A DNA stretch of 64,000 nt, from NCBI GenBank assembly GCA_964016885.1, contig OZ024740.1:140430001-140494000 (forward strand), written 5' to 3'. A program made the translations under genes and the position numbers. Each line of letters opens with the position of its first letter. The first letter of the stretch is position 1. The notes below the pieces were generated by a model. The model made no database searches and was not told the DNA's origin. It saw only the letters and a list, made by a program, of their open reading frames with translations. Source of the stretch: Eledone cirrhosa (taxonomy: Eukaryota). Below are positions 4,687 through 62,178 of this stretch, one piece after another.

Positions 4687-4875
4687 GCTCGCAAATTACT
4701 ATTTTATGCACATATTATCAATGGTTATGACATGAAAACCTGATGAAAATGACTAGCTTTGTAGAAAAAAGAGGGAGGATGTGGGTGGAAATACCATTTA
4801 CAAAGCTAGTCATTTTTTATTGCAGCGGAAGTCATATTTTTTGTTAATATGCTAAAAGCATAGTCCACTGCGAGC
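4687..4875. repeat. Foldback (MITE-like) element, copy 1
   Basis: Nested inverted repeats: gctcgca/tgcgagc, catatta/taatatg, tatgac/gtcata, aaaatgactagctttgta/tacaaagctagtcatttt. Confidence 0.7.
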
Positions 4876-6580: not shown

Positions 6581-8101
6581 CTATGAAACACTATACTTTA
6601 CCACACTATATCACACCACTCAAGTTAGAGAGGATCAACTTTTTTCCTGGAAAGTAGAAAACCTAACTTTAAGCTAAAACCGAACTTTAAAAATAACACT
6701 TACCCTAAAACTTGCACTCACACATGCTCTAACAGTGAACTTAGCGCTAACATGTAAACTAACACAAACACAAAATCTGAAAACTAACATTAAATAGAAA
6801 ACTAACACAAACTAACCTGAACACTAAGACTAAAACTGACACTAACACTAACCTGAACACCAGCACTAAAACTAACAATACCGTAAACACTAATACAAAC
6901 ACTAACACTAACCTGAACACTTACACTAAAACTAACATTAGCACAAACATTAGCCTGAACACTAGCACTAAAACTAACACTGTCATAAACACTAACACTG
7001 ACCTGAGCACTAACACTAAAAGTAACACTAACACAAACACTAATCTGAAAACTGATACTAACCAGAAAACTAAGCTAACATTAACTTCAACACTAAAACA
7101 AACACTAACAGAGATACTAACACAAATATTAACACAAAAACAAACACTAACACAATCTCTAACACTAACCTCAACACTAACACTAAAACTAACATTAACT
7201 TGAACACTAACTCTAACCTGAAAACAATTCTAACATTAACCTGAACACTAACATAAACACTAATGCTAACACTAACAGAAATACTAATGCTAACATTAAC
7301 GCTAACCTTAACACAAAATCAAAGACTAACGCTAATACAATCACTAACACTAATGGAAACATCAAACACTAATGCTAACAGAGATACTAACACAAATATT
7401 AACACAAAAACAAATACTAACACTAACCTTAACACTAACACTAACAGAGATACTAACACAAAAACAAAGACTAACACAATCTCTAACACTAACCTCAACA
7501 CTAACACTAAAACTAACATTAACTTGAACACTAACTCTAACCTGAAAACTAATCTAACATTAACCTGAACACTAACATAAACACTAATGCTAACACTAAC
7601 AGAAATACTAATGCTAACATTAACGCTAACCTTAACACAAAAACAAAGACTAACGCTAATACAATCACTAACACTAATGGAAACATCAAACACTAATGCT
7701 AACAGAGATACTAACACAAATATTAACACAAAAACAAATACTAACACTAACCTTAACACTAACACTAACCTGAACACTTACACTAAAACTATACTACATC
7801 ACACCAAGCTATTGATTTTGGTGTGACAAATTTTCATGCGGCAATTTTTTTTTTTGTTTTTGTGTTTACCACACAATTTGACATAAATGGTGCTCGCAAA
7901 TTACTATTTTATGCACATATATCAATGGTTATGACATGGAAATCTGATGAAAATGACTAGCTTTGTAGAAAAAAGAGGGAGGATGTGGGTGGAAATACCA
8001 TTTACAAAGCTAGTCATTTTTTATTGCAGCGGAAGTCATATTTTTTGTTAATATGCTAAAAGCATAGTTCACTGCGAGCATCTTGGAAGTTGATAGCACA
8101 T
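6581..8101 (+). repeat. Second, internally deleted copy of a 6580-bp tandem duplication
   Basis: 6581 onward matches position 1 onward. At about 7790 it jumps to sequence matching about 4585-4897. Confidence 0.9.
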
Positions 8102-16436: not shown

Positions 16437-17089
16437 ATACACGCATACATACTTACATATATACATGTATACATACATGCATACATACATCCATCCATAC
16501 ATGTATACACACATACATACATCCATCCATACGTGTATACATACATACAATGGTTAAAGTGTTTGACTGATGACCATAAGTTCATGGGTTCATATTTGGG
16601 ACCGGGTAGTTATTGAATCAACCTGATATCAATGTTTATTATACAACACACTTCCTCTTTGGTATAATATGACACATAGTAATATCTAACATAGTACCCA
16701 TCTAATCTGTTATAATATGATTTACTTTTCCTCTGTGAAGGCACATGCCTTAGGCGTTACGGTACTGGACTAACCATTATAAAGGCATGGCCTCGTTTCT
16801 TCGATCTTGCAGCATGCTGCGTCCTTCAGTAAAATACTTTAGTTCGTGGAGCATCTTCTACCAGGACTTGCGGCAGACAGATAATATCAGTAATGGAAAA
16901 AACCTTGTTTCATTAGTATGACCTGGAAATCAGTTCCACTCTATTTATCTTCTTTATTAAAGGCAATCAAATTAATTTTTATTTTATTCTTTTTCTTATT
17001 TTTCCATGTGTTAAATAAATTCCAAAAAATCGAACTAAATTGAAATTTTGTAATAAAATTTCCATAAAAGTTAATGTTTACAATACAAT

Positions 17090-17400
17090 AAAATGTAATA
17101 AAATGTATTGAAGTCGACGAAATGTGGACCTTCATTTTTGAAAGATGGATAATGCTATAAGCAGACCTTACAATATTGTACCACAATTTTCCTTTGTGCA
17201 AAAGTGGGCAGCCGAATTTAGGAAAGGATAGGGGATTCTTGAAGATGACCCAATGTCTGGACGTCCTACAACTGCCACTACCGAGGAAAACATTGATCTC
17301 AGTACTGCAACACCGATGGAAGTGTGTGAAACGCAAGGGAGACTATGTTGAAAAATAAACCTCATTTGGTCACATTCCATGAGAGTATCTTTGTCAACCC
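17090..17400 (+). mobile_element. Mariner transposase remnant, internally deleted
   Basis: VQKWAAEFRKG..LEDDPMSGRPTTATTEENID joined to the C-terminal RWKCVKRKGDYVEK*. Confidence 0.8.
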
Positions 17401-17707
17401 TCGTATCTATGCGCAATATACGTAAAGATACAGAATTAATCATTTATATGTTCATAGAATGTAGAAAACAAGTCATTTTCACCAACAGTTGAATTACTTC
17501 TGACAGCTAATACCATGAACTTAAATGAATTTTCACCAACAGTGGAGTTACTTCTGACAGCTAATACCATGAAATATATGAACTAAAAAAAAAATTTCAT
17601 TTAAGTAACTCCAGTTACGCGTGGTAGTAATACGGAAATAAACGATGTTTTGCTTTCATCGGCTGCTTTCGACTGACAGCTAATAAATAGCGTTGAAGTG
17701 CCGTGTG

Positions 17708-17888
17708 TTTTTTCAGTACGTCTTCATCAGATAAAATATATGATTTGATATATGACATACCGCTACGGTCTTGATTATACAATTCCAGTATTGAAATATT
17801 GCCAATACTGGAATTGTATAATCAAGACCGTAGCGGTATGTCATATATCAAATCATATATTTTATCTGATGAAGACATACTGAAAAAA
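17708..17888. repeat. Near-perfect palindrome, 86-bp arms, 9-nt loop
   Basis: 17708-17793 is the reverse complement of 17803-17888 with one mismatch (17719/17877). Confidence 0.95.
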
Positions 17889-17924
17889 AAACAATACAGT
17901 ACCTTTGAAATATATATAATAAAG
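17860..17924 (+). ncRNA. Minimal type I hammerhead ribozyme, family A
   Basis: ttttat-CTGATGA-agacatactg...cagtaccttt-GAAA-t-atat-a-TA-ataaag. Predicted cut after 17918. Confidence 0.75.
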
Positions 17925-18820
17925 CATATATTTTGATTATGAGAATATCTTTCATTTGTTAATATTTTGAATATTAAAAACTTCAGGAAAACTTTTTCAT
18001 GTTGAGTGCTTTTAATCTATTGTAAAATTGTATTCATTGAGTAATCAACGAACCATATTAATCATTGGTTATATATATATATATATATTGACGTAATAGT
18101 CACTTATATATATTATGAATATGGGCTTCTTGCTCACATTAATTTCTCTATTTTCATTTATATATATATATATATATATATATTAAGAGAGTAAAACAAA
18201 GAATCCTTTAATACATCAAAAGTTTTTATTAGCCGACAATGATATATATATATATCAACACATACATGAATCGAGAAGTCAGAAACAATCAAAATTAGGT
18301 GCAAAGTTAGAAGATACAACAGTCATTAATTATATCAATACTTGCGAAATTCCGAACGTAAAGGCAAAGAAAGTTTTCATAGGTTTGTCTATTGTGTATC
18401 TGATGTCTCTTATTACCTACGAATGGACGGAGTAACAAAATAATAAACGTAGTGAAAAACTAATAACTTTAAAGGCAAATTTATAAGTAGGGAAAAAATC
18501 ATCGTTTACTAAGAATTAAACTTACCTTCGGGATTGATTAAATAACGGGAGGAGAACACAAGAGACGTGTGTGAGTTTCATAAAACAGATTTGTGTTCTA
18601 TATACACAGTATAATGCACGAAGATTTTTCCAGGAAAAAAATGTTTAACGAAATCGGAAAATGACACTTGTTGTAATTTGTTTTCAAGGGAGACAATCTA
18701 CAAACATACTTTATGTATAGACATGTGTGTTTGTGTATTTCTATATTTATAGAGCGTGAAACTAATAAACCTTTGTTTGTACGGCCTCTCTGTTTTGTTC
18801 CCGTTCCATTTTTCACTATA

Positions 18821-18859
<39 letters not shown>

Positions 18860-19370
18860 TTACATATATTTTATCTTCGTTTAATGTCCATCTTCCACGC
18901 TAGCATGGATTTTATTTATTTATTACATTTTTAGAAATACAGACTTATAATCAATTAATTATTGTTAAGAACCTTATAAATAAAATACACAAATATATAT
19001 ATACATATATCATAATCATCATCAACGTTTAATGTCCATTGTTCCACGCTAGCATAGGTTTTAGACGAGTCGGCCCGTTATAAGTTAGATCAGATGACCG
19101 TGTTTTGCACATACACAGCTGTCTCTGGGTTGGTTTCTACGGCTAGAATACCAACTTCATTTACAGTGCGTGCTGGGTGTTTTTTGTTGTGACACACACA
19201 ATCTCGGTATGGTGAACTAACTGTTGTGTAACCACTTCTACCTAACTCGTCCCTTGGACTGAGTGCTCTACCATTACGAATATTACCTTCCAGTGTTCCA
19301 CCACTATATATATATATATAATGACTAAATTATAACCATCAACATAGTCAAGGTATGTCAGGCATCAACT

Positions 19371-19436
19371 TATTTTATCTGATGAGGACGTACTGTTTAA
19401 ATAGCACAGTACCTCTGAAATATGTATAATAAAATA
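19371..19436 (+). ncRNA. Minimal type I hammerhead ribozyme, family A
   Basis: tattttat-CTGATGA-ggacgtactg...cagtacctct-GAAA-t-atgt-a-TA-ataaaata. 8-bp stem I; predicted cut after 19428. Confidence 0.8.
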
Positions 19437-19628
19437 TATTTGATCACATGAATGTCTATATTTATTAATATTTTGAAGTAATATATATATATATATATAT
19501 AAGCAAAGAGATATTTAATTTGTTGGTTATTCAACAAATTTATTTATAACAGATTCGAAGCACTCTACAAGTTTTCTGGAGTATAATATGATATTAATAA
19601 ATGGAAACTATATTTATAAAACCATATT

Positions 19629-19689
19629 TATTTTATTATATATATTTCAAGGGTACCATAATTTTGGTACGCTCTCATCAGATAAAATA
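19629..19689 (-). ncRNA. Minimal type I hammerhead ribozyme, family A
   Basis: Minus strand: tattttat-CTGATGA-gagcgtacca-aaatta-tggtaccctt-GAAA-t-atat-a-TA-ataaaata. Confidence 0.85.
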
Positions 19690-20339
19690 CAAAATTTGTT
19701 TTATAAATGTTGACATACCCAAGAAACCAGACCTTATCGGTTCAGGTTCAGTATATATATACTGTAATATATATACTGTAATGACGAGAGTCTATGGCTC
19801 CGTTAATGTATCGTGATATATACTGTATATATATATATGTGTGTGAATGAAGTAATTCCGTCGGAAAAGTCCAGGAAAAAAGAGTGCTCTAGACGCCAGG
19901 ATTTTTTCATTCTGATGTTTGAAAGCAAAATTTTTTGCTTTTAAGAAACCACTGGTAAATGGAATAATTGCCTTATGTTGTTTATTACATAACTATATAT
20001 ATATATATATATAATCAGATAGGGTGTGGTAAAAAAAAACAGGTGGACCATAACCCACCAGAGTACTCGATACTTGGGATAGTAGAGTGGGTAGAGCCTA
20101 GCCGTCAGGGTCCTGAATCTTTTCATATATATATATATGTATAAGTATATACACACATACAGTAATTTTGTTGTCTCTTACTGTGAAAATATATATCTTC
20201 TATTCCTCTACTTTATTCTAATTTCAAGTTCCCTCAAACTTACAATCATGTTCTAATGATATTGAATATACTTAAAGGTGTGACACTGAAATTCGTGAAC
20301 GTAATTAAGAATGTAGGTAATTAAGAATGTAGGATTCAC

Positions 20340-21305
20340 ATGCAGCAGCTGTGCTGAAACAGCAAGCAAACAGCCACAGGAAACAAGTACCACCAATCTC
20401 TGGGAGGGCCCTGTAGAAACAGTAGACAGCTTCTGCTACCTAGGTGACCGAATTAGCAACGGAGGAGGGTGCTCAGAAAGTACAATAACTAGGGTAAGAA
20501 CGGGATGGAAGAAGTTTAGGGAACTACTACCACTGCTAGCTGCAAAAGGCTTCTCCCTCAGAATGAAAGGCAGACTGTATGATGCGTGTATCCGAACAGC
20601 GATGTTGCATGGTAGTGAGACCTGGGCGCTGAAGGTGGAAGACTTACGTAGATTAGAGAGAAACGAAGCCTGCATGCTCCGATGGATGTGTAACAGTAAT
20701 ATACGTGAACGACAAAGCATAAATGAATTGAGAGAGAGACTGAGCATAAGAGGAATCAAATGCTGCGTGCAGGAGAGGCGGTTACGCTGGTATGGACATG
20801 TGATGCGTATGAAGGATGACAGCTGCATAAAAAGGTGCAGAGCACTAGAAGTTGATGGAAACCGCGGAGTGGGGAGACCCAAGATGACTTGGGATGAGGT
20901 GATAAAAGCCGACCTTACCCAACTACACCTCTCAAAGTCAATGACACACGACCGTGACTTCTGGCGTCACGCAGTAATACAGGGTACCCGACCTCCCATG
21001 GGTACATGCTGAAGCATATAAACAATATGCCCCCCCCCCCCCCACCGCAAGGTGGTCGTGGAGGTGCCACGGCAAAAAAGCACCCAGCCCACACTGTAAA
21101 GTGGACGTGTAGGCGCCACGAAAAAGCACCCAGCACTCACTGTAAATGAGGTTGGTGTTAGGAAGGGCATCCAGCTGTAGAAATCAAGCCAGATCAGTTC
21201 CTGTATGAGCAAGGCATGGTCAGCCGACCAGACACTGCCCACAACAGGACAACCCGTCTAACCCATGCTAGCGTGGAAGAACGGACGTAAAACGGTGATG
21301 ATGAT
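20340..21305 (+). mobile_element. RTE LINE 3' end, 5'-truncated, with (GAT)n tail
   Basis: ORF 20563-21012 MKGRLYDACIRTAMLHGSETW...RLRWYGHVMR...GRPKMTW, followed by the 3'UTR. Confidence 0.9.
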
Positions 21306-21529
21306 ATAAACGGAAAAAATGAAACAAAATTTCATTTCTCACTCTTAGTACAGCTGTTACTTAAATATAAGTATGTATACGTACATACATATATGTATAC
21401 AGACGTACAGTAGTATGTATATATATATATACATACATGCACACATATATATATGTACGTATGGATTCACCGAACATTTATTATAATGCTCGGTGTGTTT
21501 GTAAACAAACATCCCGAATTAAGCCGTAC

Positions 21530-23968
21530 AGTGTCTAGCAACCATCGTTGGTACCGAAAGCTATCAACCACTTCTATAGCACCCACCTGCATTTGAAAAA
21601 TGTGTCTATCAATGCGACTTCTACTGTCTAATTTCCCTGTACATCAACTGCATACGTATTTCTTCCTACCTGTTAGTTTGCCTGCTATCCCACTACATCT
21701 CTTGTGTACCCAAGATCTGCATTGTGTGTATTTTATAGATTTTATGCCATTTCCTTTTCTGCATATCAAACATGGCCATTTCCCTGACAGAATCAGAGTT
21801 TTGTCCTCTTTTCTACTCATCAACACTTTTGTCTTAGCTAGGTTCACTCTCAGTCCTCTTGATTCCAATTGCTGTTTCCATAGACAGAATTTATTCTCTA
21901 GCTCCTCTACTGATTCTGCTATAAGAACCAGATCGTCAGCATAGAGAAGTTCCCATGGACAGCCAGTCTTAAACTCCTCTGTTATGGCTTGGAGGACTAT
22001 AATGAACAAGAGCAGGCTGAGGACCAAACCCTGATGTACCCCTACTTGTATCTGGAATACCTCACTAAACTTCCATTCCTACCCTCACTTTACTGACAGC
22101 ACCTCTGTACAAAGTTTGCACTGTCCTCACAAGCCATTCCTCAACACCTAGTTTCCTTAGGGTCCACCAGATGACAGATCGAGGTACCCTATCAAAGGCC
22201 TTCTCTAGGTCAACAAAATCTAAGTATAGTGGCTTATTCTTCTCTAAGAACCTCTCTTGTAACTGTCTCACCAAGAAGAGGGCATCTGTTGTACTTTTCC
22301 CAGGCACAAAACCAAACTGCATCTCATCTAGTTTGACCCTTTCTCTAATTAGTTGTGCTAATATCCTTTCTGCCACTTTCATAACCTGATCCATCAGTTT
22401 TATACCCCTATAATTGTTCCTCTCCAGAGCATCCTCTTTGTAGCAATTTATGAGAATACTGCTGCACCAGTCTTTTGGTATGACACCACCATATATAGCC
22501 TGATTGATGATGCGTGCAACCAGTTTGGTGCCTATATCCCCTGATGCCTTCAGCATATCAGCAACTATCCCCGACGGTCCAGCGGCCTTACCATTTTTCA
22601 TTTCCTTAATCGCCTCTTGGATGCTATATTCATCAATCTCAATAGCTGGTCCCTCTGTTGGATCTACTGAGGGTAATTTCTCTCTGTCCCATTCGTTCTC
22701 CACATTCATCAGTCTCTCATAATGACATTTTCAAGCCTCCTTTTTCTGATCATTCGTGACACTAAGTACACCGGCATCATTCCGGACACATTTATCTCCA
22801 ACATCCTGATTTGCATTGACACACTGCCTTGCAATGTGGAACACTGCACGTCTCTGATCTTCCCATTGCAGAACATTGGCAAACCTCCTACTCTCAGCCT
22901 CCCTGCGTGCTAAATACACCTGACGTCTAGCTTCTCTCTTAGCGACTGTATATCCATCCCTACTCCCACCCTTTTTCCAAGCCTTCCATGCTACTCTTTT
23001 GTCTCTAGTGGTCCTATCTACTGTGCCGTTCCACCACCAGGTCACTCTCTGTCTGGTTGGAGCTCTGCTCCAGCCACAAGTTTCATCAGTAGCCTGCAGT
23101 AAGTTATCACGTAAGAAATTCCAGTTATCATCTATGTCATACGACTCTAAATCGTCTTCTTTTTCGTCATACACATCTTGAAGGGCTTTCCTAAATTTAT
23201 ATTTTAGTGAAAGGTCTTTTAGCTTCCAGACCTTTCTTCTCAACACCTTCCTGTATGTCTCATTCCATCTCTTGCTTACTGAGATATCACTAACGACTAA
23301 CCTATGCTGTGGGGTACATTCTTCCCCAGGGTATGCCTTGGTATTTGACACCATCTGCCTGTCCCGCTGCCTAATTAGTAAGAAGTCAATCTGGCTTATG
23401 TGCTTGCCTGATTTGTAGGTTATTAGGTGCTTGGCAGGTTTCTGGAAGTTAGTGTTGCAAATGGTTAGTGTACTTGCATCACAAAATTCAAGAAGTCTCA
23501 CTCCTTCTTCATTTTTGGAGCCGTAACCATGCCCACCATGTACCCCAGTGTAACCATCCTGGAGCTGTCCAACATGACCATTGAAGTCCCCTGCTAGCAT
23601 AAAGTAGTCTCCGTCCTGTCATTGCGGCTGTTTGTAAAAGTTGCTCGTAAAAGCAGTCTTTCTCTTCTTTACCTAGGCTTGCTTGGGGAACATAGGCAGA
23701 GATGATTGTCAGTAGTCTCCTGCCTACAACTAATCTAAGCTTAATTATTCTATTATTAACTCAAACTACCTCTGTTGTCTTATCGATCCATCTCTCAGCC
23801 AGGAAAATGCCTACTCCCCCTAACCGATCATCCTTACCTACCTAAAGCTTATAACTAAGATGTTTGCCTGTGATTAGTCTCGCAGAGGAACCTCTCCATC
23901 TCACCTCTTGCACGCAGCACACATCCACATGCCTTGCCTTCTCTCCAGCATCTCCGCTATTTCACCAG
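21530..23968 (-). mobile_element. RTE LINE, degraded APE endonuclease plus RT
   Basis: AGDFNGHVG, SQIDFLL, QFGFVPGKSTTDA, FVDLEKAFDRVPR, ELLYADDLVL. Confidence 0.92.
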
Positions 23969-23999
<31 letters not shown>

Positions 24000-24049
24000 T
24001 AATAAAATGATAGGAGCCTGGACTTGTGTAAATCCTTGAAAGGTTTATT

Positions 24050-24107
24050 ATACTATGATCATTTCAATGACCAGGTTGCATATGAATCCGGTGATATCAT
24101 CAGGTAT
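24050..24107 (-). ncRNA. Minimal type I hammerhead ribozyme, family B
   Basis: Minus strand: atac-CTGATGA-tatcaccgg...cctggtcatt-GAAA-t-gatc-a-TA-gtat. Confidence 0.7.
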
Positions 24108-24583
24108 TCGAAATATAATAAATGAATGTAATAGATAAAATCCATGGGGCTGAAAATCACAGACCGGAGGATGACCGACCATCTAGCATCTTCCACTTTA
24201 GCCGGTCGCCCTCAAGTGCTGGCTATTCGGTCTACTTGAGGCTATCTGGTGAGGGGGCTAAAGCTACTGTGCTACTACCCTCCTGGTCAAATAGAAGAAA
24301 AACAGAAAGGGAGAGGAAGATAAGTCAGCGTTAATATCATGCTACAAGAAAAAAGACAGAAAGAAGGGGGAAGAAAAGGAAGAAGAAGAAAAGTCAGCGT
24401 TAATGTCGAGCTATAAGAAGAAAGACAGAAAGAAAGAGGAAGAAAAGTCTGTATTGATGTCAAGCTACAGTCAGGCCAGGAATGGTGTGAAAAAAATTTA
24501 TTCTAAAGGACCCGTATCTTAACAGAGGTATATATTATAACAGAGGTAAATATAGTAGGGGTCTGCATGTTATAATGTGTGAG

Positions 24584-25718
24584 CAGAAGATTGGAACGTT
24601 AAATTTTTGTTTAGATTTATAGGATGAAGTTACAAAAATTTAATATTTAATATTAACATTATAAAATTAAAGAAATTAGGAAATTGAAAATTAAACAGTT
24701 TAACATTTTTTAGATTTTGGTTGCGAGGTTTAAGTAAAGAAAGAGTCTTTTATGAAGAAACTTAAATTGTATTATAGAGTAAAGGATATGTCCTTGTTTA
24801 GCAGTCAAACAGCATGCGGCGACTGCAGGCTCCGGCCAGCCCAACCTTACCTCGTGTCAGCCATTCCGAGTGAGATCGCCTAGCGAAAGATATGGAAATC
24901 AATTTTTCCAAGCACTCTAGGAATGTATAACAGGCTTCAGGTGCGCTAGTGGGAAGTCAGCCATCGTCGTTAGGCCATCCTTGTACCAAACCAGTACTAT
25001 TAATTTACCCAGGAGGGGGATTTGTTTAAGTAGAGGGAGGCGTGATACATCTAATAGTTATGATTAGGTCTATAATTTAAAGGTACTATATGGCGGTAAA
25101 AAAAACGGCTGCGCGCCGGGTCCCTGGGGGCGAATCAAGCCACTCCGAGTAGTTTCATTTACCGAAAGAAGGGGAAATTTACTTTTCCAAGCACTCAAGG
25201 TAGGCCTATGCGCCAGGAGGCCGGTCCCACAGCCAGGAAAACCAACCCAACAGTCCGACAGAAAATTGGAACGTTAAATTATTGTTTAGATTTATAGGAT
25301 GAAGTTAAAAAAATTAAAGATTAACATTATAAAATTAAAGAGTTAGAAAATTGAAAATTAAACAGTTTAAAACTTTTTTGAGGTTTTGGGTTGCGAGGTT
25401 TAGTTAAAGAAAGAGTCTTTTATGAAGAAACTTTAATTGTATTATAGAGATCCTCTATAAGTTATGCTAGTGGGATGTAGAGTAAAGGATATGTCCTTGT
25501 TTAGCAGTAAGACAGCATGTGGCGACTGCAGACCCCTGCCTGCTCATCCTAACCACGTGTCAGCTATTCCGAGTGAGATCGTCTAGCGAAAGATATGGAA
25601 ATCAATTATTCCAAGCACTCAAGGAATGTATTCCAGGCTTCAGGTGTGCTAGTGGGAAGTCAGCCATCATCGTTATGCCATCGTTATGCCAAACGAGTAC
25701 CATTAATTTATACAGGAG
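24584..25718. repeat. Internal ~430-460 bp duplication (24584-25015 vs 25259-25718)
   Basis: Both begin cagaa(g/a)attggaacgttaaatt and share gtaaaggatatgtccttgtttagcagt and gctagtgggaagtcagccatc. Confidence 0.9.
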
Positions 25719-26442
25719 AGTCCGGGCAATAGCTATTATTGTTCTCAGGGGGAGACATTCTAGTGTCGTGTGCTAATGGGTACAAGCGAGTAAAAGTCCG
25801 AATAAGAGGAGTAAAAAATACATGGATATATAGAAGTAGAATACGTGGAAAAAGCACATTAATAAAGCAAAGGTAGAAAGATATAAATAAACAAACAAGA
25901 GTGGTGGTGGAGTAAAATGGAGAAAACACAGGAGAAATACAATATAGTTCAAGTTGCAGTCAGATAATGCATATAGATGTGGAAATGGAATCAGTGTGTG
26001 TTCGAGTCTGAGAATTCAGTGTGAGTTACACAGGCCCTGAAGTATAGGGTAGAGAATTTAGTCAATACAGTACAGTACAATACAGGTTATGGTATAATCC
26101 GTAGAATTTTGTCAAAGTCTGAATATTCCGAGAAGGAAGTAGCATTGGGCCAGGTGGGCTCAGAGTAGCCAAAAACCGAATGGTGGTTAGATCCAGTTAG
26201 TCCTATGCCGCTGTTCATTATTACATTTGGAAGTGCTCAACATTTCAGGAGCATCATTTATTCAGGTTTGAAGGTTCACCACTGGATAGAGCTGGTCAAT
26301 CTTAATGTAATAATATGGAGAGTACTCAACGTAAAGCAGTTCAACCGTCTTCGTTTTTGTAGTTGGTGGTGCGAGTACGGAGTTAAATATTATAATAAAA
26401 TGACAGGAGTCTGGACTTGTGTAAATCCTTGAAAGGTTTATT

Positions 26443-26500
26443 ATACTATGATCATTTCAATGACCGGTTTCCATATGAATCCGGTGATATCATCAGGTAT
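26443..26500 (-). ncRNA. Minimal type I hammerhead ribozyme, family B
   Basis: Direct-repeat copy of 24050-24107 at offset 2393. Stem II tatcaccgg/ccggtcatt. Confidence 0.7.
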
Positions 26501-26548
26501 TCGAAATATAATAAATGAATGTAATAGATAAAATCCATTATATTTCGA

Positions 26549-26606
26549 ATACCTGATGATATCACCGGATTCATACAGAACCTGGTCATTGAAATGATCA
26601 TAGTAT
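26549..26606 (+). ncRNA. Minimal type I hammerhead ribozyme, family B (inverted copy)
   Basis: atac-CTGATGA(26553-59)...GAAA(26591-94)-t-gatc-a-TA-gtat. Confidence 0.7.
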
Positions 26607-28416
26607 AATAAACCTTTCAAGGATTTACACAAGTCCAGACTCCTGTCATTTTATTATAATATTTAACTCCGTACCAGCACCACCAACTACAAAAACGAAG
26701 ACGGTTGAACTGCTTTACGTTGAGTACTCTCCATATTATTACATTAAGATTGACCATACGGAATTGACCAGCTCTATCCAGTGGTGAACCTTCAAACCTG
26801 AATATATATATATATATACACTCACATTTGGAGTTTCAAATACAAGTGTATATATAAACATAGGTTAGAATGAAGATAGCTTGACACAAAATGATGTATT
26901 TTTATTTCTTATTTTAATCATTGAATATAATTACACCATAAACATATTTCACCCATGTCATTGCAATTCCTTGTCATTGCATTGAGTTCTGCTCATAATT
27001 AAATTAACATTGAAACCATTTTAGGTTCTGGTTTATTCATTTACCATTGGGGTTGGGGTACCTTCAGTTTCTCTTTCCAGGTATCATACCTTCCAGATAG
27101 GTTTTAGAGAGACTACAAGTTGGACATTCAATGTGGCTAAACAGTTTAAATTTATTAAAGATTATTTGTTGGATCATTTTTTCTAGCTGAAATCTTTTAC
27201 CTCTGTCAGTTAGTAGTAAGTTTTGTAGCATGGTTTTGAAATAATTCAATTTTTTAATGTGTTTTTGCAGACAAGGTATCACAATCTAATCCCTACAGAA
27301 ACACAAGAATGTAAGTGTTATATATAACACAATGCATTTATTCCCATTTAATTCATTTAAATAATAATTATTGAGGTTATAAAGATGGTTTTTCAATTGT
27401 TCTTTTTATCGGGATGGTCAACTTTTCTGGGTCAGTGTTATATATTTTGCAATTGCTGGAAAACAGGATGACTGGGTGCATCTAGGCCTGTGTAAAGCTG
27501 GTTATAGGCCCAGTTCACATGTTAAAAAAATAAGCAGGCCCGGTATCTGGGTCTTTAGCACCCTGAGTTTTCCAAATTATATAATTTCAACTTACAGTTT
27601 AGTAAGCTGACAAACCTAGTTTTTGTCACTTCTTGTTGTGATCACTCTAAGTAAATTACTAAGCCTGCATTTTCCACTGTACAATCCACACTCACCCATA
27701 CCAAATCATCTGACAGGTCATAACACCATACAACACTACCCACTGCCTTGGATATTTCCACAGTGCTGCTATACAGCAAATATGTTTAAGGATTTATTTA
27801 TTGATTGCAGGAAATTTAATTTAATTCTACACATTTATAGTTGGCCTTAATAGGAGCATGCCTGGAAAATGTTTAATAATAAATTTCCTTAATTGTGACA
27901 AAATAAATAACAACAAAATCTTGGTGAACAGGGCTATGTGATAATTACATGTCTTGGCCATAGATGCAATGCAGTTTTGGTAAAAGAATATGAAATTACA
28001 GTTCTTCAGCTAAATTTCCAACATTCTAACAACTCAGTTGCCTGAGTTATCTACTCATACATTTGATGCTGTTGACTTCAGAGAGCAGCACAAAATACTA
28101 TTCACGTCTTTCTCAAAGGCTCTGAAAAGGATTATAGTCACTGTCCTTACATCCATAACTAAACAATAAAAAAAAAAATGCCATTGTCAAATTACTTTCT
28201 CAAAGAGAGTAGGCACAAGATAACATCTAAGAGGGAAAGTAAAAACAAGATGAAATAATGATCATATATGATTTTATTGGGCACTATCAATCAATTAACA
28301 GATCAATAAATAATAAATAAATAAATTAATTGAAAATTACATCAAATATTGTCATCGAGTCACACAATCAGTTGCTAATGGGAGTGATCATGTAGAAAAT
28401 AATACTTGACAGTGAC

Positions 28417-29427
28417 TTATAAATTACGCTCCGATGGTTTCTTGAACTTCATTCCAATATAGTCGAATGTATCTTGTTCAGAAGACACAGGCAATGGCTC
28501 TCCTGGAATCCCTGTACTTCCCATTGGTCGAATGCAGTATTCATTGAGTGTAAATCCATTTTCCAAAGCACGACCCCGCATATCTTTATTGAACATATCG
28601 CTACCGGTGAAATAAAGCAGTGCACAATAATACTGGTCATGAGGGATTAAACGGAGATCAAATCTTCGAAAATGTCGCTTGGTTTCCTTGTCATGCTCTG
28701 GAAGACGACAGACCCCCATAAATTTTGAGTCCCCCATAGAAATAGTATCCGTTATCAACCCCTTATTGGTGAGATATTTTACTACTGCCTTAAGCAATTC
28801 TGGTTTCTTCTTATCAGCAGCAACATAGTCTGGATGTGTTAACAAAACATCAATGTCTCCAGAAGAAATAGCCCCTCTTCGATAACTTCCACAAACTTTA
28901 GCTTCATACTTGGGGTCAACTTTGTTGATTCTTGCTAATATTCTGTCTCGTAAATCAGTTATTTCTTCACGAGGAATTCTCATTTCAAAGTCTTCAAAAT
29001 GTTTCACACCAATTTTCTGGTGGTGATTCAGTTTATCAGTGATCTTCCGGAGATCTTCAATATCTTTTATTCCATCCTTGGCAAAGTTGGCAGCTGCAGC
29101 AGGACCTATTCCAGACACTTTGGTCAATTCACTGATGGCCATATTCATGTCATTAGCTCGGATTTTGTTCAGCTTTTCAAGCTGTCCTGTACGAATGAAT
29201 TCATCAATTTTTTTGCCTATTTTATCTCCTATACCATTCAGCCTCTTTGCTTCTTCTCCATTTTTAATCCTCGTAGGGTGCTTAGCAAGAAGTCCAGCAG
29301 CTTTTCGATAAACGTTATACTTATGCAAGGCACGTGTGACATTCTTTTCATAATTGGCAAGCTCCATGAGAAAGTCACAGAAATCTGAATTCAGATTTTC
29401 AGTATGTGGGTTCTTTCGTTTACTCAT
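28417..29427 (-). CDS. POLB: DNA polymerase beta (family X), single-exon CDS, 336 aa
   Basis: MSKRK N-terminus, lyase HhH GIGDKIGKKIDE, VSGIGP, CGSYRRG, catalytic GDIDVLL and RRFDLR, YFTGSDMFNKDMR, C-terminal PSER. Confidence 0.97.
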   Translation of the reverse strand: MSKRKNPHTENLNSDFCDFLMELANYEKNVTRALHKYNVYRKAAGLLAKHPTRIKNGEEAKRLNGIGDKIGKKIDEFIRTGQLEKLNKIRANDMNMAISELTKVSGIGPAAAANFAKDGIKDIEDLRKITDKLNHHQKIGVKHFEDFEMRIPREEITDLRDRILARINKVDPKYEAKVCGSYRRGAISSGDIDVLLTHPDYVAADKKKPELLKAVVKYLTNKGLITDTISMGDSKFMGVCRLPEHDKETKRHFRRFDLRLIPHDQYYCALLYFTGSDMFNKDMRGRALENGFTLNEYCIRPMGSTGIPGEPLPVSSEQDTFDYIGMKFKKPSERNL

Positions 29428-29450
29428 TCTGTTTCAATAACTGGAATGTC

Positions 29451-40759: not shown

Positions 40760-43050
40760 TATATTCGTTCCTCCTCCCCACCATGCCTAGCCAAAGAATT
40801 TTCCTCCTGCACAACTGTTTAAAACTCTACTTCTTCCCTTCTGCATCCAATTTTCACTCCGCCTGTCATACGTTTTTTTTTTTGCTAGGACACGATACTC
40901 CATGTCAACTTCCTCAGCCGTTGCCTTCGTCACCATATCATCCGTTTCCGCTTCCAGCCCACAACCTACTCATCCCTCGCCATTGAGCCCATCCTCACTC
41001 GTTCCTCCCGCCTTCTCATCCTCGCCACCCTTCGATCTACCCGCTCCCAGATCCACATTATAGACCGACATCTCCCGCAAACCTTTCTCTGTTCCACCCG
41101 TCACCCTTTCCTCGCACATTCCATCTTACTTTTTTATGCATAATCTCAACCACCTACTCTTCCACTGCCTAACCTCCACTAAAGTCCGTAAGCTACATTG
41201 TCTCCTTAATTCCGCCCACGCACTAGCGCACTCTTTCATTTTCACATCTTTCACCTTCATACCTTTCCATCCCCATTCCTCAACCACCTCCCCCACCCAC
41301 ACCGGACGCTTTTCACATTAGCCATCGCCCCCCACCCACAACTTGTTACTCTACCCTCTGACCTTCCGCTGTCTGGTTCCAAGCCTTCACTAATCGGTAG
41401 AGGTCTGCGTTTCATACCACTCACCTTATGGCGACGAATTTCAGACTCACATGGACATTGAGCAGTTCCTGCGCATACCATATTGCATCTGCATTTTCAT
41501 GGCAATCCTGTGGCTCCGAACCTCTCTAGGCACCTTCATGAAGGGGTCCAGAGACCATCACATTGGACACCAGCTCCCGGACAATTCAGTGGCCTGGATA
41601 GGTTCGTTGATGCCTGCCATCGGGTCATGAATTGTTTCAATTTCCATAAACATTACAAATGATGTAAAATTTCCCAGGCAGAACTCGCTGCCCTCCACTC
41701 CTGTGACCGTGATGACATTGTCATTAAGCTGTCCAACAAGGGTGACACTATGGTCGTGTGGCACACGGTCCTATATAAAACAGGCATTACAGCAACTCTG
41801 CAACACACTCTTCTACATCCTCCTTGACACGGATTCCAATCCTCAATACCAGCAACAGGTCACGTCTACTATACACCAATTCATCGTTTCCTCTCTTCTA
41901 CTCCCTTCAGCTACCAACCTTATCATCTGCACTCCATGGACCTCCACTATCAACTTCCTCCTCAAATTACACAAGCCCAACAAACTCGGCCACCCCATCA
42001 TCTCAACCTGTAATTGCGCCACTGAACTTGTTTCAGCTTATCTCGATTCCATTTTCTGCTCCCTGGTAGCCACCCTACCTTCTCACATATCTGACACCAG
42101 CCACACCCTCCGCCTCTTTGACTCCTTCTTCCCACCTGGCTCTCCTCCCTACTCTTCACCCTCAACATAAAGTCCCTATACACGGTCATCCCCCATACTG
42201 AAGTTCTAGCCTTGCAACACTTCTTTAACCTTCTCCCTGCCCCTCTACTTTCCACCTCCACCCCTATTTGCTTAACTGAGTTGGTCCTCACCCTCAACTG
42301 TTACTCCTTCTCGAGTGAGATTTACCAGCAGGCGAGGGGGTGACCATAGGTACAAGAATGGGCCCCAGCTATACCAACTTATTTGTCAGATATGTTAAGG
42401 CATAAATCTTTTCTCAATACTTTAGCCCAACGCCTGTGCTGTATGGTCATTACATTGACGAGTCTCTCACCCGAACCCAGCTCGACTCCTTTTTGTCCTT
42501 TCTCTGCTCCTTCCACCCTGCCCTCAAATTCACTACTTCTATCTCCACTTCTGTCAGATTCCTGGACATCTCTGTAACCATTGACCCCTCCAATTGCACC
42601 CTCATCACCTCTGCCTACTTCAAGCCCCCAGACTCCCATGCCTACCTCAACTTCACCTCCTCCCACACCAAACGCTCCATCCCCTATTCTCTATTCCTCC
42701 GCCTATACCACCCTTGTAGTCAAACCCATGATTTTAAGATTCTGTCTCATTACATGGCCAGACTTTTCACTAGGCATGGATACGCCCTACCCTTATCCAA
42801 GCCGCCCCCACCTAGGCCCGTGGTGTCGATTGCACCACTGCCCTTACTCCATGCCACGGCTCCCCCACCACCAACCAGCAACCTACTGCCATTCCCCCTC
42901 GCCTACCACCCTTCTACTTTGCCCCTCCAGAAGACAATTCACAGTCTTTTCCATTGCCTACAGTCGGATCCAGTTTTCCACTCCCACCCCACCCATAAGT
43001 GCACTCATAATCTTCAGAACTTCCTTGTCCACAACTCCAGTCCTTCAGAT
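40760..43050 (+). mobile_element. Penelope-like element RT remnant
   Basis: LLKLHKPNKLGHPIIS, LPSHISDTSH, IKSLYTVIPH, GTRMGPSYTNLF, YGHYIDES, HPALKFT, FLDISV, KPPDSHAYL, SIPYSLFLRL. Frameshifted. Confidence 0.85.
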
Positions 43051-54379: not shown

Positions 54380-56252
54380 TCTATATACATATATAATATT
54401 ATGTTGGTGTGTAACAGTTTTACTTTACGTTTATGTGCTTGTTATTGTAACAAATGAAATACCAGTTCATTAAACACCTGTATGTGTACAATACCAGTTC
54501 ATTACAATACCAGTTTATTACACCTGTATGTGTACAAATATGTCAACAATGGTTCTGATGCTGCCATGATGGCGCTACAAAAATGAAATATGTTCGCTGA
54601 GGTGTCCAATTTCCAACACGGCTGATACATCAGCTGTAGAGACTCCTTTTTCTGAAAACACGCAGGAAGTGAGTGGGAACCCTCGGAGTTACAGATAAGC
54701 ACCTCTCAGCTGTTTAAATTTATAGAAAAGCACCTGCTGGGGATTGCGAAGAATTTTTTTTGCTATGTTTTTTTTCATGTTTTCAACTAATCTGACCTAC
54801 ATGCTTGCAATCACCTTCTTTTCTGAAAATGCATTAGAGCAGGGACGCTAGGATTTTCCCAGCCTCGGAGATTTCTTCAGTGAGAATAACAGAGGTGGGA
54901 AAAGAGGGGGTCCCTTGGAGTTACAGACAAGGACCTCTCAGCTGTTTAAATTTATAGAAAAGCAATCCCTTGACACTGAAGGATGTTTTGATCCTTCATC
55001 ATTTTCTACTGCTGTGGAAGGTGTTGTAAATTTAATTAATCAAGTGTTCCCCAATTTCGAAATCCACCATTCAAATGAGGACTGGCTGTGTGAAAGAGCA
55101 ATCCTTGTCCCCCAAAACACCACAATCAATGCCATCAACAAAAATTCTCACAAATGATCCCTGGAGGTAGCCAGATATATACAAAGTTGTCAAGGAGGCA
55201 CATGGCTTAGTGGTTAGAGCATTGGCCTTGCAATCGAAAGGTTGTGAGTTCAATTCTCAGACTGTCTTGAGCAAGACACTTTATTTCATATTGCTCCAGT
55301 TTACTCAGCTGTAGAAATGAGATGATAGGGACTGGGGTTCCTATCATTCCACTGCAAAGTGGTTGTGGAGGTGACACGACAAAAAAGCACCCAGCCCACA
55401 CTGTAAAGTGGACGTGTAGGTGCCACGAAAAAAAAGCACCCAGCACTCACTGTAAATGAGGTTGGTGTTAGGACGGGCATCCAGCTGTAGAAATCAAGCC
55501 AGAATCAGTTCCCGTCCCACCCTTGCAAGCAGGGAAAAGTGGACGTAAAATGAAATGATGATGTCAACGAGGATGAAGCTGTTCATTGTCCTGTTGAATT
55601 TCTCAACAGTCTGGAACCATCCGGTATGCAGCCACACGAACCTTGAATTGAAGGAGTGCACAGTCATTATGCTTCTCAGAAACTTGGGATCAGCCATGAT
55701 TATGCAATGTGATGCATATGGTGGTGACTGAACTACATACAGCCTCACATTATTGAAGCCACTATCTTCATTGGATGTGGTAAGGGAGACATTGTATTTA
55801 TATTTAGAATATCGCTAATACCAACAGATGTCCCTTTTTGTTTCAAATTCCCAGTGAGAGTCAGTTACACAATGACCATTAACAAGTCCCAAGGTCAAAA
55901 ACTGCAGGTTATCAGTCTCCATCTACAAGAGGGCTGATTCTCACATGGTCAGTTGTATGTAGTTTGTTCCAGAGTAGGAAACCTCTACAAGCTCTTCATA
56001 TCTGCTCCAAAGAAAAAAGTTAAAAATATTGTATATACTGAAGTTCTGTAAATGTTTTATAATTTTCGTAGAATACATTTTTCTATTATTTTCTTTATTA
56101 CTTTTTGAATTTAGATATTCTAAATAAATTTTTAAAATTATGTTATGCAATATTTAAATACCTTTTTGATTTCAAGGAAAATGGGCATTACAATAGGTGC
56201 CTTATAGATTTGAACATAGTACAAACTGGGGCAAAGGCCGGGTAGCCACTAG
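54380..56252 (+). mobile_element. Helitron remnant with PIF1-like helicase fragments
   Basis: WLCERAILVP, PVEFLNSLEPSG, IMLLRNL, FPVRVSYTMTINKSQGQ, FSHGQLYVVCSRV. 3' end gcaaaggccgggtagccaCTAG. The 5' boundary (TCTATA) is tentative. Confidence 0.85.
55194..55562 (+). mobile_element. Full-length tRNA-SINE inserted in the Helitron helicase, TSD TGTCAA
   Basis: tgtcaa on both sides. Removing the SINE restores VVNEDEAVHCPVEFLN. Confidence 0.9.
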
Positions 56253-57833: not shown

Positions 57834-57841
<8 letters not shown>

Positions 57842-58012
57842 AGATTCAGGATCCCAACGGCTGAGCTCCGGCCGTTTCAACAGCTAGATCTAGCTGTCGG
57901 AGCTGACCCGTTGGGGGTCCTGAACCTTTTCATATTACCCACTCTACTACCCCAAGTATCAAGTACTCTGGTGGTTATGGTCCACCTGATTTTTTACCAC
58001 ACCCTATTTGAT
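57834..58012. repeat. Hairpin-containing dispersed repeat (relatives at about 20014-20127 and 47407-47462)
   Basis: atatgaaaagattcagga...tcctgaaccttttcatat inverted arms around the palindrome acagctagatctagctgt. Confidence 0.75.
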
Positions 58013-60420: not shown

Positions 60421-62178
60421 CTGGACTCTAGTTGTGGATACTCAGAGAGTGGTACTCGTGTTGTACAACTGTTTACCACTTTATTTATTTACTTTACCGG
60501 TTTTAGTTCTTATGATTTTCGAAAGTAAAATTGTGGTTTGTCTCACATATATATATAAAACCTTGCCTCTGTATCATGCTATGGAACTATCTATTTATTT
60601 TCTCATTTGAGTCTTTGTGTATAAGGCCAGGTTCTATAGCACCAGCATTTCCCTCACTATTATTGTTTTTGTCTATGCTGAATCTGGATTGTATTCTCAC
60701 ATTCACTAAAATAATAAAGTATACCACCAGTCTGTCGAATCATATTTACTTATAAATGTGTGCCTGTATACCTTTGTTTCTGAATGTGTTCCATATTTGT
60801 GCATAGATGAATACTCTCGCGAATTAAATCCATGTATGTATTCTAACGTTTCTCTCTCTACATGGTTATGTATATATGTGTTTATATATATATATATATA
60901 TGTATATGTCTATCAATATATGTGTGCTTATGTATATATTTATATATATAAATGACCGGTTAACCAATGAGGAAAAGGAAAATCTGAAATTTGGTACATA
61001 GTTCTCCCAACGCAAATGGCTATAATAATAGTCTTTACGTTGCGACGACTACATCTATGTGTGTGTATATGTGAAGTAGAATTTCAATCCTTTATATATA
61101 ACATTGCATCTTTCCAATACTGCGGATGCCGACTTTACACCCAGTATGAAAACACTGTTTCAATAAGAATAATAAACATAAACAAATACAATGTGTATGT
61201 ATTAGTAACGACCTATTGTGTCTGTATGTGTATGTGTGAATGTATGTTTTCCGGAGATAACAGAACTGAACCACAGTTAAAGAAGGTACGCAATACATTA
61301 GTAGTAAATATACATATTTATTTTATATAGAAAGGACTTGTACTGTTTCATTCATTTGAAATCATCACGGAAATGTTTGTATATCAATCATTATATACAC
61401 ACGTCGTCCATCTACGGTTATTTCTCATCTGCGATATAAGCAAAACTAGCGACGACTATGGTGGTGTTAGCTGTTCGCAAGGATACGATAATTCCCCCAT
61501 TGTTTTTTCTCCATAGAGAAAACCTAAGCTTTTTCTACCCCTCTTTTATTAAAGGATTAGCTATTTTTCTATTAACTGGATATAATATTAGCCGTTTGTT
61601 GCCAGTTTGGCAATTAGCGATTTGGCCTATACGGAGAGAATGGTGCTGTTATATGGAATATTGTTAGAGAAACTCGGAGTAGCGAAAGAATGAATCATCA
61701 AATTCGAATAAAACGCGCACGCACACACTCATTCTCTTTCACTCTCTCATCCAACCTGTTGACAGCAATGGACATATTTCCGTCTTAGATCTCCTCAAAG
61801 TTAGTAAGACTCAACCGACCAAATAAGTATAGAAAAAAGGAATGAAATTTTCTGTGTTAAAGATGAGTAAAGTGAAAATTGCCTCCATAAATGTGGTGGG
61901 AAAAACACTTCAATCAATCATACCGTATGTGTGCGTGTGTGTATTGGAGGAGGGGTGTACAGACGTATTAACTGAACGAGCACTCAATACATTTAAGCAG
62001 AATGATTTATTTTCCAAGGTAAAAGCGGGCAGTGACTTCCAGGTTTCGGGCAGTCTGAAGATGCAACACAGTCTGACTTTCCTAGTAGCTGCCAGCTTTT
62101 TTTTTACTGCCCCCCCCCCCCCCCCCCCCCCAAAAAAAAACAACAAAAAAAAAAGCAGAATATGTACGTATGGGCATA

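Follow-up and report, generated by a model that had tools for sequence, protein, structure and literature searches.

Within 1.9 kb of the genome of Eledone cirrhosa lie three short motifs that resemble hammerhead ribozymes, and the locus raises the question of what they are, where they came from and whether they act in place. The stretch analysed, referred to here as the window, comprises 64,000 nucleotides (nt) of contig OZ024740.1 (assembly GCA_964016885.1, positions 140,430,001 to 140,494,000 of the forward strand), and all coordinates are counted from its first letter. The three copies are named A1, A2 and A3 and form family A; a second hammerhead-bearing family of the window is named family B. 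The original prediction, made by a model from the sequence, described three diverged hammerheads with compensatory changes in stem II. We hold with good confidence that A1 to A3 are three separate, 5′-truncated insertions of one abundant family. The family most likely represents the terminal repeat at the 3′ side of a Penelope-like retroelement (PLE) or of a non-coding passenger of one, with a type I hammerhead predicted to work only as a dimer and probably inert in place.

The three motifs are real copies of a type I hammerhead-type RNA motif. A type I hammerhead descriptor was applied to both strands of the 64 kb, with 100 block-wise dinucleotide-shuffled windows as the null. It recovered exactly three cores, those of family A, with C3 at 17866 (+), 19379 (+) and 19681 (-); the shuffled windows averaged 0.02 matches each and never held more than 1. 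The motifs are as follows.

17860-17924, plus strand: hammerhead motif A1; stem I of 6 base pairs (bp), CUGAUGA, stem II of 3 bp, C-C, A-C and 5 bp, GAAA, palindrome AUAUAUAU, predicted cut after A17918
19371-19436, plus strand: hammerhead motif A2; stem I of 8 bp, stem II of 3 bp, C-C and 6 bp; its palindrome, AUAUGUAU, is self-complementary if G-U is counted; cleavage predicted after A19428
19629-19689, minus strand: hammerhead motif A3; stem I of 8 bp, stem II of 3 bp, C-C and 6 bp; its palindrome is AUAUAUAU; cleavage predicted between 19637 and 19636

All three copies carry the CUGANGA, GAAA and UH core of the type I hammerhead, flanked by helices I and II, of which helix I is open-ended. 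Stem I has 6-8 bp, and in stem II 8-9 of 10 positions pair. Stem II registers directly after A9, with no unpaired nucleotide separating position 9 from 10.1. Its first pair, 10.1/11.1, is A-U in A1 and G-U in A2 and A3, and its fourth is a C-C mismatch in every copy. The nucleotides A15.1 to U16.1 form an 8-nt palindrome in each copy, a stem III of the dimer type. Palindromic positions 15.2-16.2 and loop 3, a feature of PLE dimer-type hammerheads, are found in A1, A2 (with G-U) and A3, and again in family B, where the palindrome is AUGAUCAU. The predicted cut site lies directly 3′ of an AUA triplet in A1, A2 and A3.

Both inspection and the descriptor scan bear out the presence and positions of the three motifs within 1.9 kb, as well as the convergent orientation of A2 and A3. 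The cut sites that the original prediction had placed (after 17918, after 19428 and between 19637 and 19636) agree with ours, cleavage itself being predicted. Its account of stem II stands in part. The pairs do change between copies, but AGAC/CTTT, GGAC/CTCT and GAGC/CCTT are three pairs and a C-C mismatch rather than four pairs. The outer stem II of A1 had been misread as GTACTG/CAGTAC; it is ATACTG/CAGTAC, with an A-C mismatch.

Rfam hammerhead models gave no match in the window at the gathering threshold or up to E=10, and scans of metagenome contigs and viral contigs with the family A pattern returned 0 matches. Rfam microRNA matches were sub-threshold matches to fold-backs and were set aside, as was a weak model match at 61309-61385 (E 0.008) that is without an intact core. 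A distal extension of helix I could be constructed in A1 to A3, but only that of A3 beats shuffles (33 of 1000 were as good, compared with 107 for A1, 635 for A2 and 114-130 for family B), and it was rejected.

The covariation that had been read from stem II was assessed on an alignment of the three A copies only (19 pairs, 57 cells), and related sequences can exceed such shuffles without structure. Paired cells amount to 96.5% of the 57, against 33-61% in slid controls, and four of the 19 pairs (four of nine in stem II) are changed on both sides, a figure reached by 8 of 500 shuffles. The core and stem I are identical at 15 of 15 positions in all three pairwise comparisons, whereas the tails are 63-71% alike and the far upstream flank 41-48%. 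Stem II holds 10 changes from the majority state, all of them transitions, and a single pair is broken; about half of the tail changes are transversions.

It could be argued that these changes are neutral, with G-C, G-U and A-U pairs interconverted by decay through transitions and no selection on structure. The argument draws on all ten stem II changes being transitions, and on the CpG sites at which U11.1 and A17877 stand and may have decayed. A neutral simulation was run on a star tree, scoring at most one broken pair given at least nine changes while the transition share was varied. The probability was 5-7% at a transition share of 0.95, 1.4-2.1% at 0.8 and 0.07-0.12% at 0.5; the tails, with about 50% transversions, correspond to the last of these, where the chance is about 0.1%. 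Survival of the 11 core positions in all three copies has a neutral probability of 0.1-3%. Two A3 pairs also change in opposite directions (U-A to C-G and G-C to A-U), and family B shows the same architecture with different stem letters. A purely neutral origin of the pattern is therefore very unlikely. Because the core is invariant beside diverged tails and the neutral probabilities are low, it is likely that the structure was under selection in the source lineage; this lends modest support to what had been proposed for the source family, and three copies are no formal proof.

The homology between A1 and A3 extends well beyond the ribozyme (69.5% over 246 nt), and each motif sits within a longer element copy whose boundaries are as follows.

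17708-17793, minus strand: inverted 5′ arm of A1, a half hammerhead with the 5′ strand of stem I, CTGATGA at 17730-17724 and the 5′ strand of stem II
17803-18069, plus strand: element copy A1, 5′-truncated, its 3′ end of the long type, 151 nt downstream of the predicted cut
18070-18088: (TA)n at the 3′ junction of A1
19305-19320: (TA)n at the 5′ junction of A2
19321-19480, plus strand: element copy A2, 160 nt, 5′-truncated, its 3′ end of the short type, 52 nt downstream of the predicted cut
19481-19501: (TA)n common to the 3′ ends of the convergent A2 and A3
19503-19751, minus strand: element copy A3, about 250 nt, of a diverged subfamily, its 3′ end of the long type, 134 nt downstream of the predicted cut
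19752-19761: (TA)n on the 5′ side of A3

(TA)n flanks A2 and A3 on either side, which is what insertion into a microsatellite would produce. All seven measured ends lie within 7 nt of a (TA)5+ run, compared with 2.9% of window positions within 10 nt, the ends being partly defined by the runs. The left arm of A1, which is outside these seven, does not stop at a (TA)n run. Eleven of the 50 (TA)5+ runs of the window fall within 18070-20138, which accounts for the clustering of the copies. The convergent pair A2 and A3 was considered as a single two-armed insertion and rejected, as the two lie tail to tail and are only 72% alike. The cluster of three is present as described, but it is part of a larger one: there is the half-copy at 17730 (-), and family B hammerheads stand at 24103 (-), 26496 (-) and 26553 (+), 4-7 kb from the family A cluster.

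The inverted arm of A1 gives a hammerhead-model match at 17704-17760 and breaks off in loop II into unrelated sequence. Together with the facing part of A1 it forms a fold-back (17708-17793/17803-17888) of 86-nt arms that are 99% complementary and 9 nt apart, a near-perfect palindrome of 181 nt (z = -23.6). In any RNA that reads through 17708-17888, half of hammerhead A1 would be tied up in this fold-back. Upstream of stem I, the sequence GGTATGTCA is kept in all family A copies (17835-17843, 19352-19360 and 19719-19711) while its surroundings diverge, and it looks like a 5′ splice site. The conserved GGTATGTC, 17-29 nt 5′ of stem I, is splice donor-like in sequence.

Relatives of A1, and of A1 only, were recruited from sequencing data to the 266-nt stretch 17800-18065 at 80% likeness. 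The data were three runs of one sample (X1 to X3) and a restriction-site-associated DNA (RAD) run from another study. Of 20 sequencing runs with matches to the stretch, 17 had shares of 0.11 or less, and the sole RNA entry stood at a share of 0.05. Matches numbered 2,252, 2,203 and 2,320 contigs in X1 to X3 and 2,219 RAD reads; these are not copy numbers. Family A is very abundant.

Among 40 of the 64 variants in these relatives, none falls in the core and none on the two mismatched cytosines. Stem positions account for ten, of which all but one preserve or re-create pairing with the partner letter of the window or the common one. Pairing-compatible changes include 17873 A>G (64-76%), 17906 T>C (44-49%) and 17877 A>G (97-99%), while 17914 A>G yields the G-U palindrome of A2. 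At pair 10.1/11.1, which is G-C in PLE dimer-type hammerheads, G is found in 64-76% and C in 44-49% of relatives, the linkage between them not being visible. One consensus of loose ends (263 reads) has C at position 7, a tolerant core position. The mismatched A17877 is private to A1, with G both in its inverted twin and in 97-99% of relatives, and it therefore points to decay after insertion.

The relatives also end where the window copies end. Among 24 of 452 loose-end entries, ends running into (TA)n occur at about 17973 in 25, 25 and 31 contigs of the three runs and in 274 reads, and after 18063 in 38, 32 and 29 contigs; 272 of 454 molecules end at 17972. The short end of A2 thus recurs in relatives at about 17973 in A1 coordinates, and the loose ends give support for (TA)n that is independent of the window junctions. 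Two alternative 3′ ends, a PLE feature, are found at about 17973 and at 18069, with a spacing above that published.

Folding calculations bear on whether the motifs could cut. In a monomer, closure of stem III (2 bp and a 4-nt loop) is computed to cost about 3 kcal/mol, and 8 bp are possible only in trans; helix III is not stable within one molecule in family A motifs. When two molecules join in trans by way of the 8-bp palindrome, the resulting junction exceeds the monomer fold in stability by 6.9-11.9 kcal/mol. Any A with A combination works, and A with B fails. The A hammerheads are accordingly predicted to cleave as dimers only and not as monomers, in agreement with the dimer model in the literature (PMC4209133; PMC6765202). 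Stem I has a predicted pairing probability that does not exceed 0.07 in any of the isolated elements and drops to 0.00 when the fold-back is included or in read-through, and A2 and A3, on opposite strands, cannot dimerise in one transcript. For these two reasons the A copies are probably inert in place.

The same calculations bear on the idea that the cluster is a local device selected by the host, such as a ribozyme set or a long hairpin that processes a transcript through the locus. Three intact cores within 1.9 kb and an 86-bp near-perfect fold-back with z = -23.6 are what such a device might look like. Against it stand the private stem II mismatch of A1, stem I pairing that is predicted to stay at or below 0.07 in every context computed and falls to 0.00 with the inverted arm or in read-through, and the opposite strands of A2 and A3, which exclude a dimer within one transcript. 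Since abundance and (TA)n targeting explain the clustering, a host device is highly improbable.

Insertion of a mobile element leaves the question of which one. The terminal repeats (pLTRs) of metazoan PLEs are reported to carry type I hammerheads whose helix III is small and palindromic, and dimer cleavage, with dimers cleaving weakly, and opposite-strand pairs have been described for them (Cervera and De la Pena 2014, PMC4209133). In line with the PLE hammerheads covered there, family A has the CUGANGA/GAAA/UH core, a long helix II and a palindromic helix III. Further shared traits are a U-rich 5′ and an AU-rich 3′ flank, mostly solitary truncated copies, opposite-strand pairs and covariation among families (PMC4209133). 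The nearest row of Fig. S3 of that paper is a Drosophila willistoni PLE with the same build of 8-nt palindrome and AUA. Family A differs from the consensus given in the paper by having no extra nucleotide between 9 and 10.1, which some of the published PLE rows lack too. Similarly, palindromic short stem III and dimer cleavage characterise the small PLE-associated variants of Lunse, Weinberg and Breaker 2016, as summarised in PMC6765202.

The anatomy of the insertions points in the same direction. A 5′ truncation, an inverted 5′ copy, a tail and a (TA)n bias are described for PLEs by Craig et al. 2021 (PMC8557442). A 5′ truncation with an adjoining inverted 5′-truncated copy is found at 17708-17793/17803-17888 and also in family B (26256-26807). 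Elements of the Hydra clade of PLEs, including Hydra-1_Obim, share with family A an octopus host, (TA)n insertion, short elements and a type I hammerhead of canonical form that lies some 100 nt from the 3′ end (PMC8557442). Identity with Hydra-1_Obim was rejected in a by-eye comparison with File S2 of that paper, as its hammerhead has no stem in common with family A, stem III there being 4 bp long with a loop of 1 nt. Neither family A nor family B could be connected with a reverse transcriptase (RT) motif of the Hydra clade, which is recognised by RWK/DKT RT motifs and a CxCX5C linker. The Poseidon element of Anolis, PAc, has two internal RT start sites in vitro, with uncut RNA as the main template (Frangieh et al. 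2024, PMC11167929). Family A has a short and a long 3′ end and an AT-rich target, as PAc does. The open reading frame (ORF) of PAc starts inside its hammerhead (PMC11167929); an equivalent ORF from the ATG inside the core was rejected for family A, where all frames from it stop within 17 codons.

Family A is thus most likely a PLE terminal-repeat hammerhead of the palindromic-helix-III type. The proposal of short Penelope-type terminal repeats at a (TA)n spot gains support from the 5′ truncation, the inverted 5′ copy, the two fixed 3′ ends at (TA)n and the palindromic helix III. It is kept as an interpretation because no RT or GIY-YIG ORF is linked to the A copies.

A different driver has to be weighed, in which the repeat is a short interspersed element (SINE) or another element dependent on long interspersed elements (LINEs), mobilised for example by the abundant RTE LINEs of the window, and merely carries a hammerhead. 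RTE-type LINE remnants adjoin the locus from 20317 onward and are common in the window, and hammerhead SINEs are known from schistosomes (PMC6765202). The A tails, however, resemble no LINE end in the window and have no poly-A or simple-repeat tail of their own, and 3′ ends fixed at two internal sites, like an inverted 5′ arm, are typical of PLEs. A LINE-driven origin appears quite unlikely.

More serious, though still doubtful, is a narrower version that overlaps with the PLE origin, namely that the source is a non-autonomous retrozyme of the non-LTR (non-long terminal repeat) kind. Short non-coding units in tandem would be transcribed, cut into monomers, circularised and reverse-transcribed in trans by a PLE protein, and the copies would be partial monomers. 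Metazoan non-LTR retrozymes resemble family A in being non-coding and PLE-related, with a type I hammerhead, and their monomers are dispersed and derived from PLE terminal repeats (PMC7229834; 10.64898/2026.07.22.740005). No ORF is linked to the A copies in the window, every A copy spans the cut site, and the body of family B is non-coding, all of which would fit. Unlike such retrozymes, family A showed no tandem units, either locally or at the A1 joints. There is no tandem array carrying a hammerhead in 17000-27200 (periods up to 500), and the 12 listed joints of the 266-nt stretch include none that runs back from 3′ to 5′. Published retrozymes, as far as PMC7229834 describes them, moreover have mostly canonical hammerheads with contacts between loops 1 and 2.

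Several points weigh against the PLE terminal-repeat reading itself. No RT or GIY-YIG remnant lies beside any A copy within the window. The two 3′ ends of family A are about 95 nt apart, compared with the tail of 30-40 nt published for PAc (PMC11167929). The covariation is based on three copies and on transitions only, and self-cleavage of the A motifs is a prediction only. The sample behind X1 to X3 may be the source of the window itself. The variants considered are 40 of 64 and the loose ends 24 of 452, with linkage between sites not visible, and one variant, 17882 G>T (7-29%), breaks the outermost, loop-closing pair of stem II. Direct terminal repeats around a body (pLTR-body-pLTR) were seen in the window for family B and not for family A.

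Coding sequence was sought around the cluster as well. The longest open frame in 16500-20320 has 133 codons, and tblastn with 11 PLE-type proteins gave matches below E 0.2 only at 41333-43047 (+). This region is a decayed, frameshifted remnant of a Penelope-type RT whose relatives carry RVT_1 and GIY-YIG domains. Such a remnant shows that PLEs have been active in this genome; nothing ties it to family A. Just past it, a minus-strand CTGATGA (43101-43095) is not part of any standard hammerhead fold.

What is observed directly for family A is the motif with its flanks, junctions with (TA)n, an inverted 5′ arm in A1, a pair of 3′ ends that recur, and high abundance. From this we infer the cleavage, protein and priming steps of a possible life cycle. 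The RNA of the source element would fold stems I and II, with its 8-nt palindrome unable to close a stable stem III in one molecule. Two hammerheads, either the two terminal repeats of one transcript or those of two RNAs, would then pair through the palindrome and cut after AUA. A PLE protein with RT and GIY-YIG domains may nick (TA)n, and reverse transcription would begin at either of two fixed internal positions, about 52 or 134-151 nt beyond the site of cleavage. As every A copy runs across that site, the template would have been uncut or re-ligated. Early termination would leave stubs of 160-270 nt, and priming from both strands or a template switch could produce the inverted arm. Each insertion would split (TA)n and leave targets on both sides, so that inserts could pile up in a chain. 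Selection would keep the core and helices while subfamilies diverge, and decay would follow insertion.

The C-C mismatch at pair 4 of stem II is the odd element of this design. It is found in all six copies of two families with different stem sequences, while the pairs on both sides of it change. By eye it occurs in none of the 56 rows of Fig. S3 of PMC4209133, a figure without a cephalopod row. Two of those rows have another mismatch at pair 4, namely S. purpuratus 1 (C-A) and Clonorchis 2 (U-U). The mismatch is likewise not in the Hydra rows of File S2 of PMC8557442. A literature search for a hammerhead with a C-C mismatch in stem II found none, which is no proof of absence from print, and the variants of Lunse 2016 may already include the C-C form. 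We tentatively suggest, while judging it rather more doubtful than probable, that the conserved C-C marks a cephalopod lineage of PLE hammerheads with a functional site not described before. A tertiary or protein contact at this site might tune or brake dimer cleavage, leaving uncut RNA for reverse transcription. The fixed mismatch would in any case be a cheap mutational handle on what a poorly cleaving PLE hammerhead is for.

Family B offers a second instance of the same build in the following insertion.

23996-26801, minus strand: family B insertion, (TA)n-flanked, 2.8 kb; repeat 24145-23996, non-coding body of 2.1 kb, repeat 26538-26256 and inverted arm 26537-26801 (+)

Its hammerheads have, like those of family A, three positions followed by C-C at pair 4 and an outer helix, an 8-nt palindrome and AUA, with different stem letters and U-U at 10.1/11.1. 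The insertion has a short end on one side and a long end on the other. Its frames are full of stops, and a motif scan of the body gave nothing convincing. The layout of repeat, body, repeat and inverted arm is that of the PLE drawing explained in the Fig. 2 legend of PMC8557442, and the spacing of 2,393 nt between hammerheads is in the Hydra size range given in that paper. Going by its layout, the insertion is a candidate non-autonomous PLE. It contains a 550-nt inverted duplication, and its body has an internal duplication of 460 nt (24584-25015/25259-25718, 82%) and a 63-nt segment present three times.

The value of these observations as a discovery is small, since family A belongs to a sequence type already described, apart from the odd unpaired C-C position. 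PLE terminal-repeat hammerheads, their covariation, their dependence on dimers and (TA)n targeting are already published. The two 3′ ends of family A extend the internal-priming model of PMC11167929, as described for PAc, to another family with a longer tail. A recent Octopus vulgaris repeat annotation (PMC13282606) lists 31 recently active Penelope-like families, and the words hammerhead and ribozyme do not occur in it. A literature search for octopus hammerhead ribozymes returned no paper on the topic by title. As Rfam misses the family A motifs too, an abundant octopod repeat may be unannotated.

The remainder of the window is rich in LINE remnants and microsatellites. Upstream of the cluster, 17040-17405 looks by eye like what we take to be the 3′ end of a mariner-type transposase with its terminal repeat. 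A (TA)n-flanked repeat occurs at 20014-20124 and 57838-58012 (91% over 80 nt). Its longer copy is predicted to fold into a long and stable hairpin, at about -70 kcal/mol over 175 nt, in which a bulge contains GAAAC; this may be the end of another structured retroelement. Near-identical segments with CTGATGA at 4710-4820 and 7914-8020 lie in an (AACACT)-like satellite region and have no hammerhead fold under either descriptor. A tRNA-like match at 55196-55268 (+) scores 33.9 bits and is probably the head of a tRNA-derived SINE. An intact single-exon ORF for DNA polymerase beta (28417-29433, minus strand) encodes a protein that marks the host as an octopod, being 91% identical to that of Octopus vulgaris and at most 72% identical to those of named non-cephalopod molluscs.

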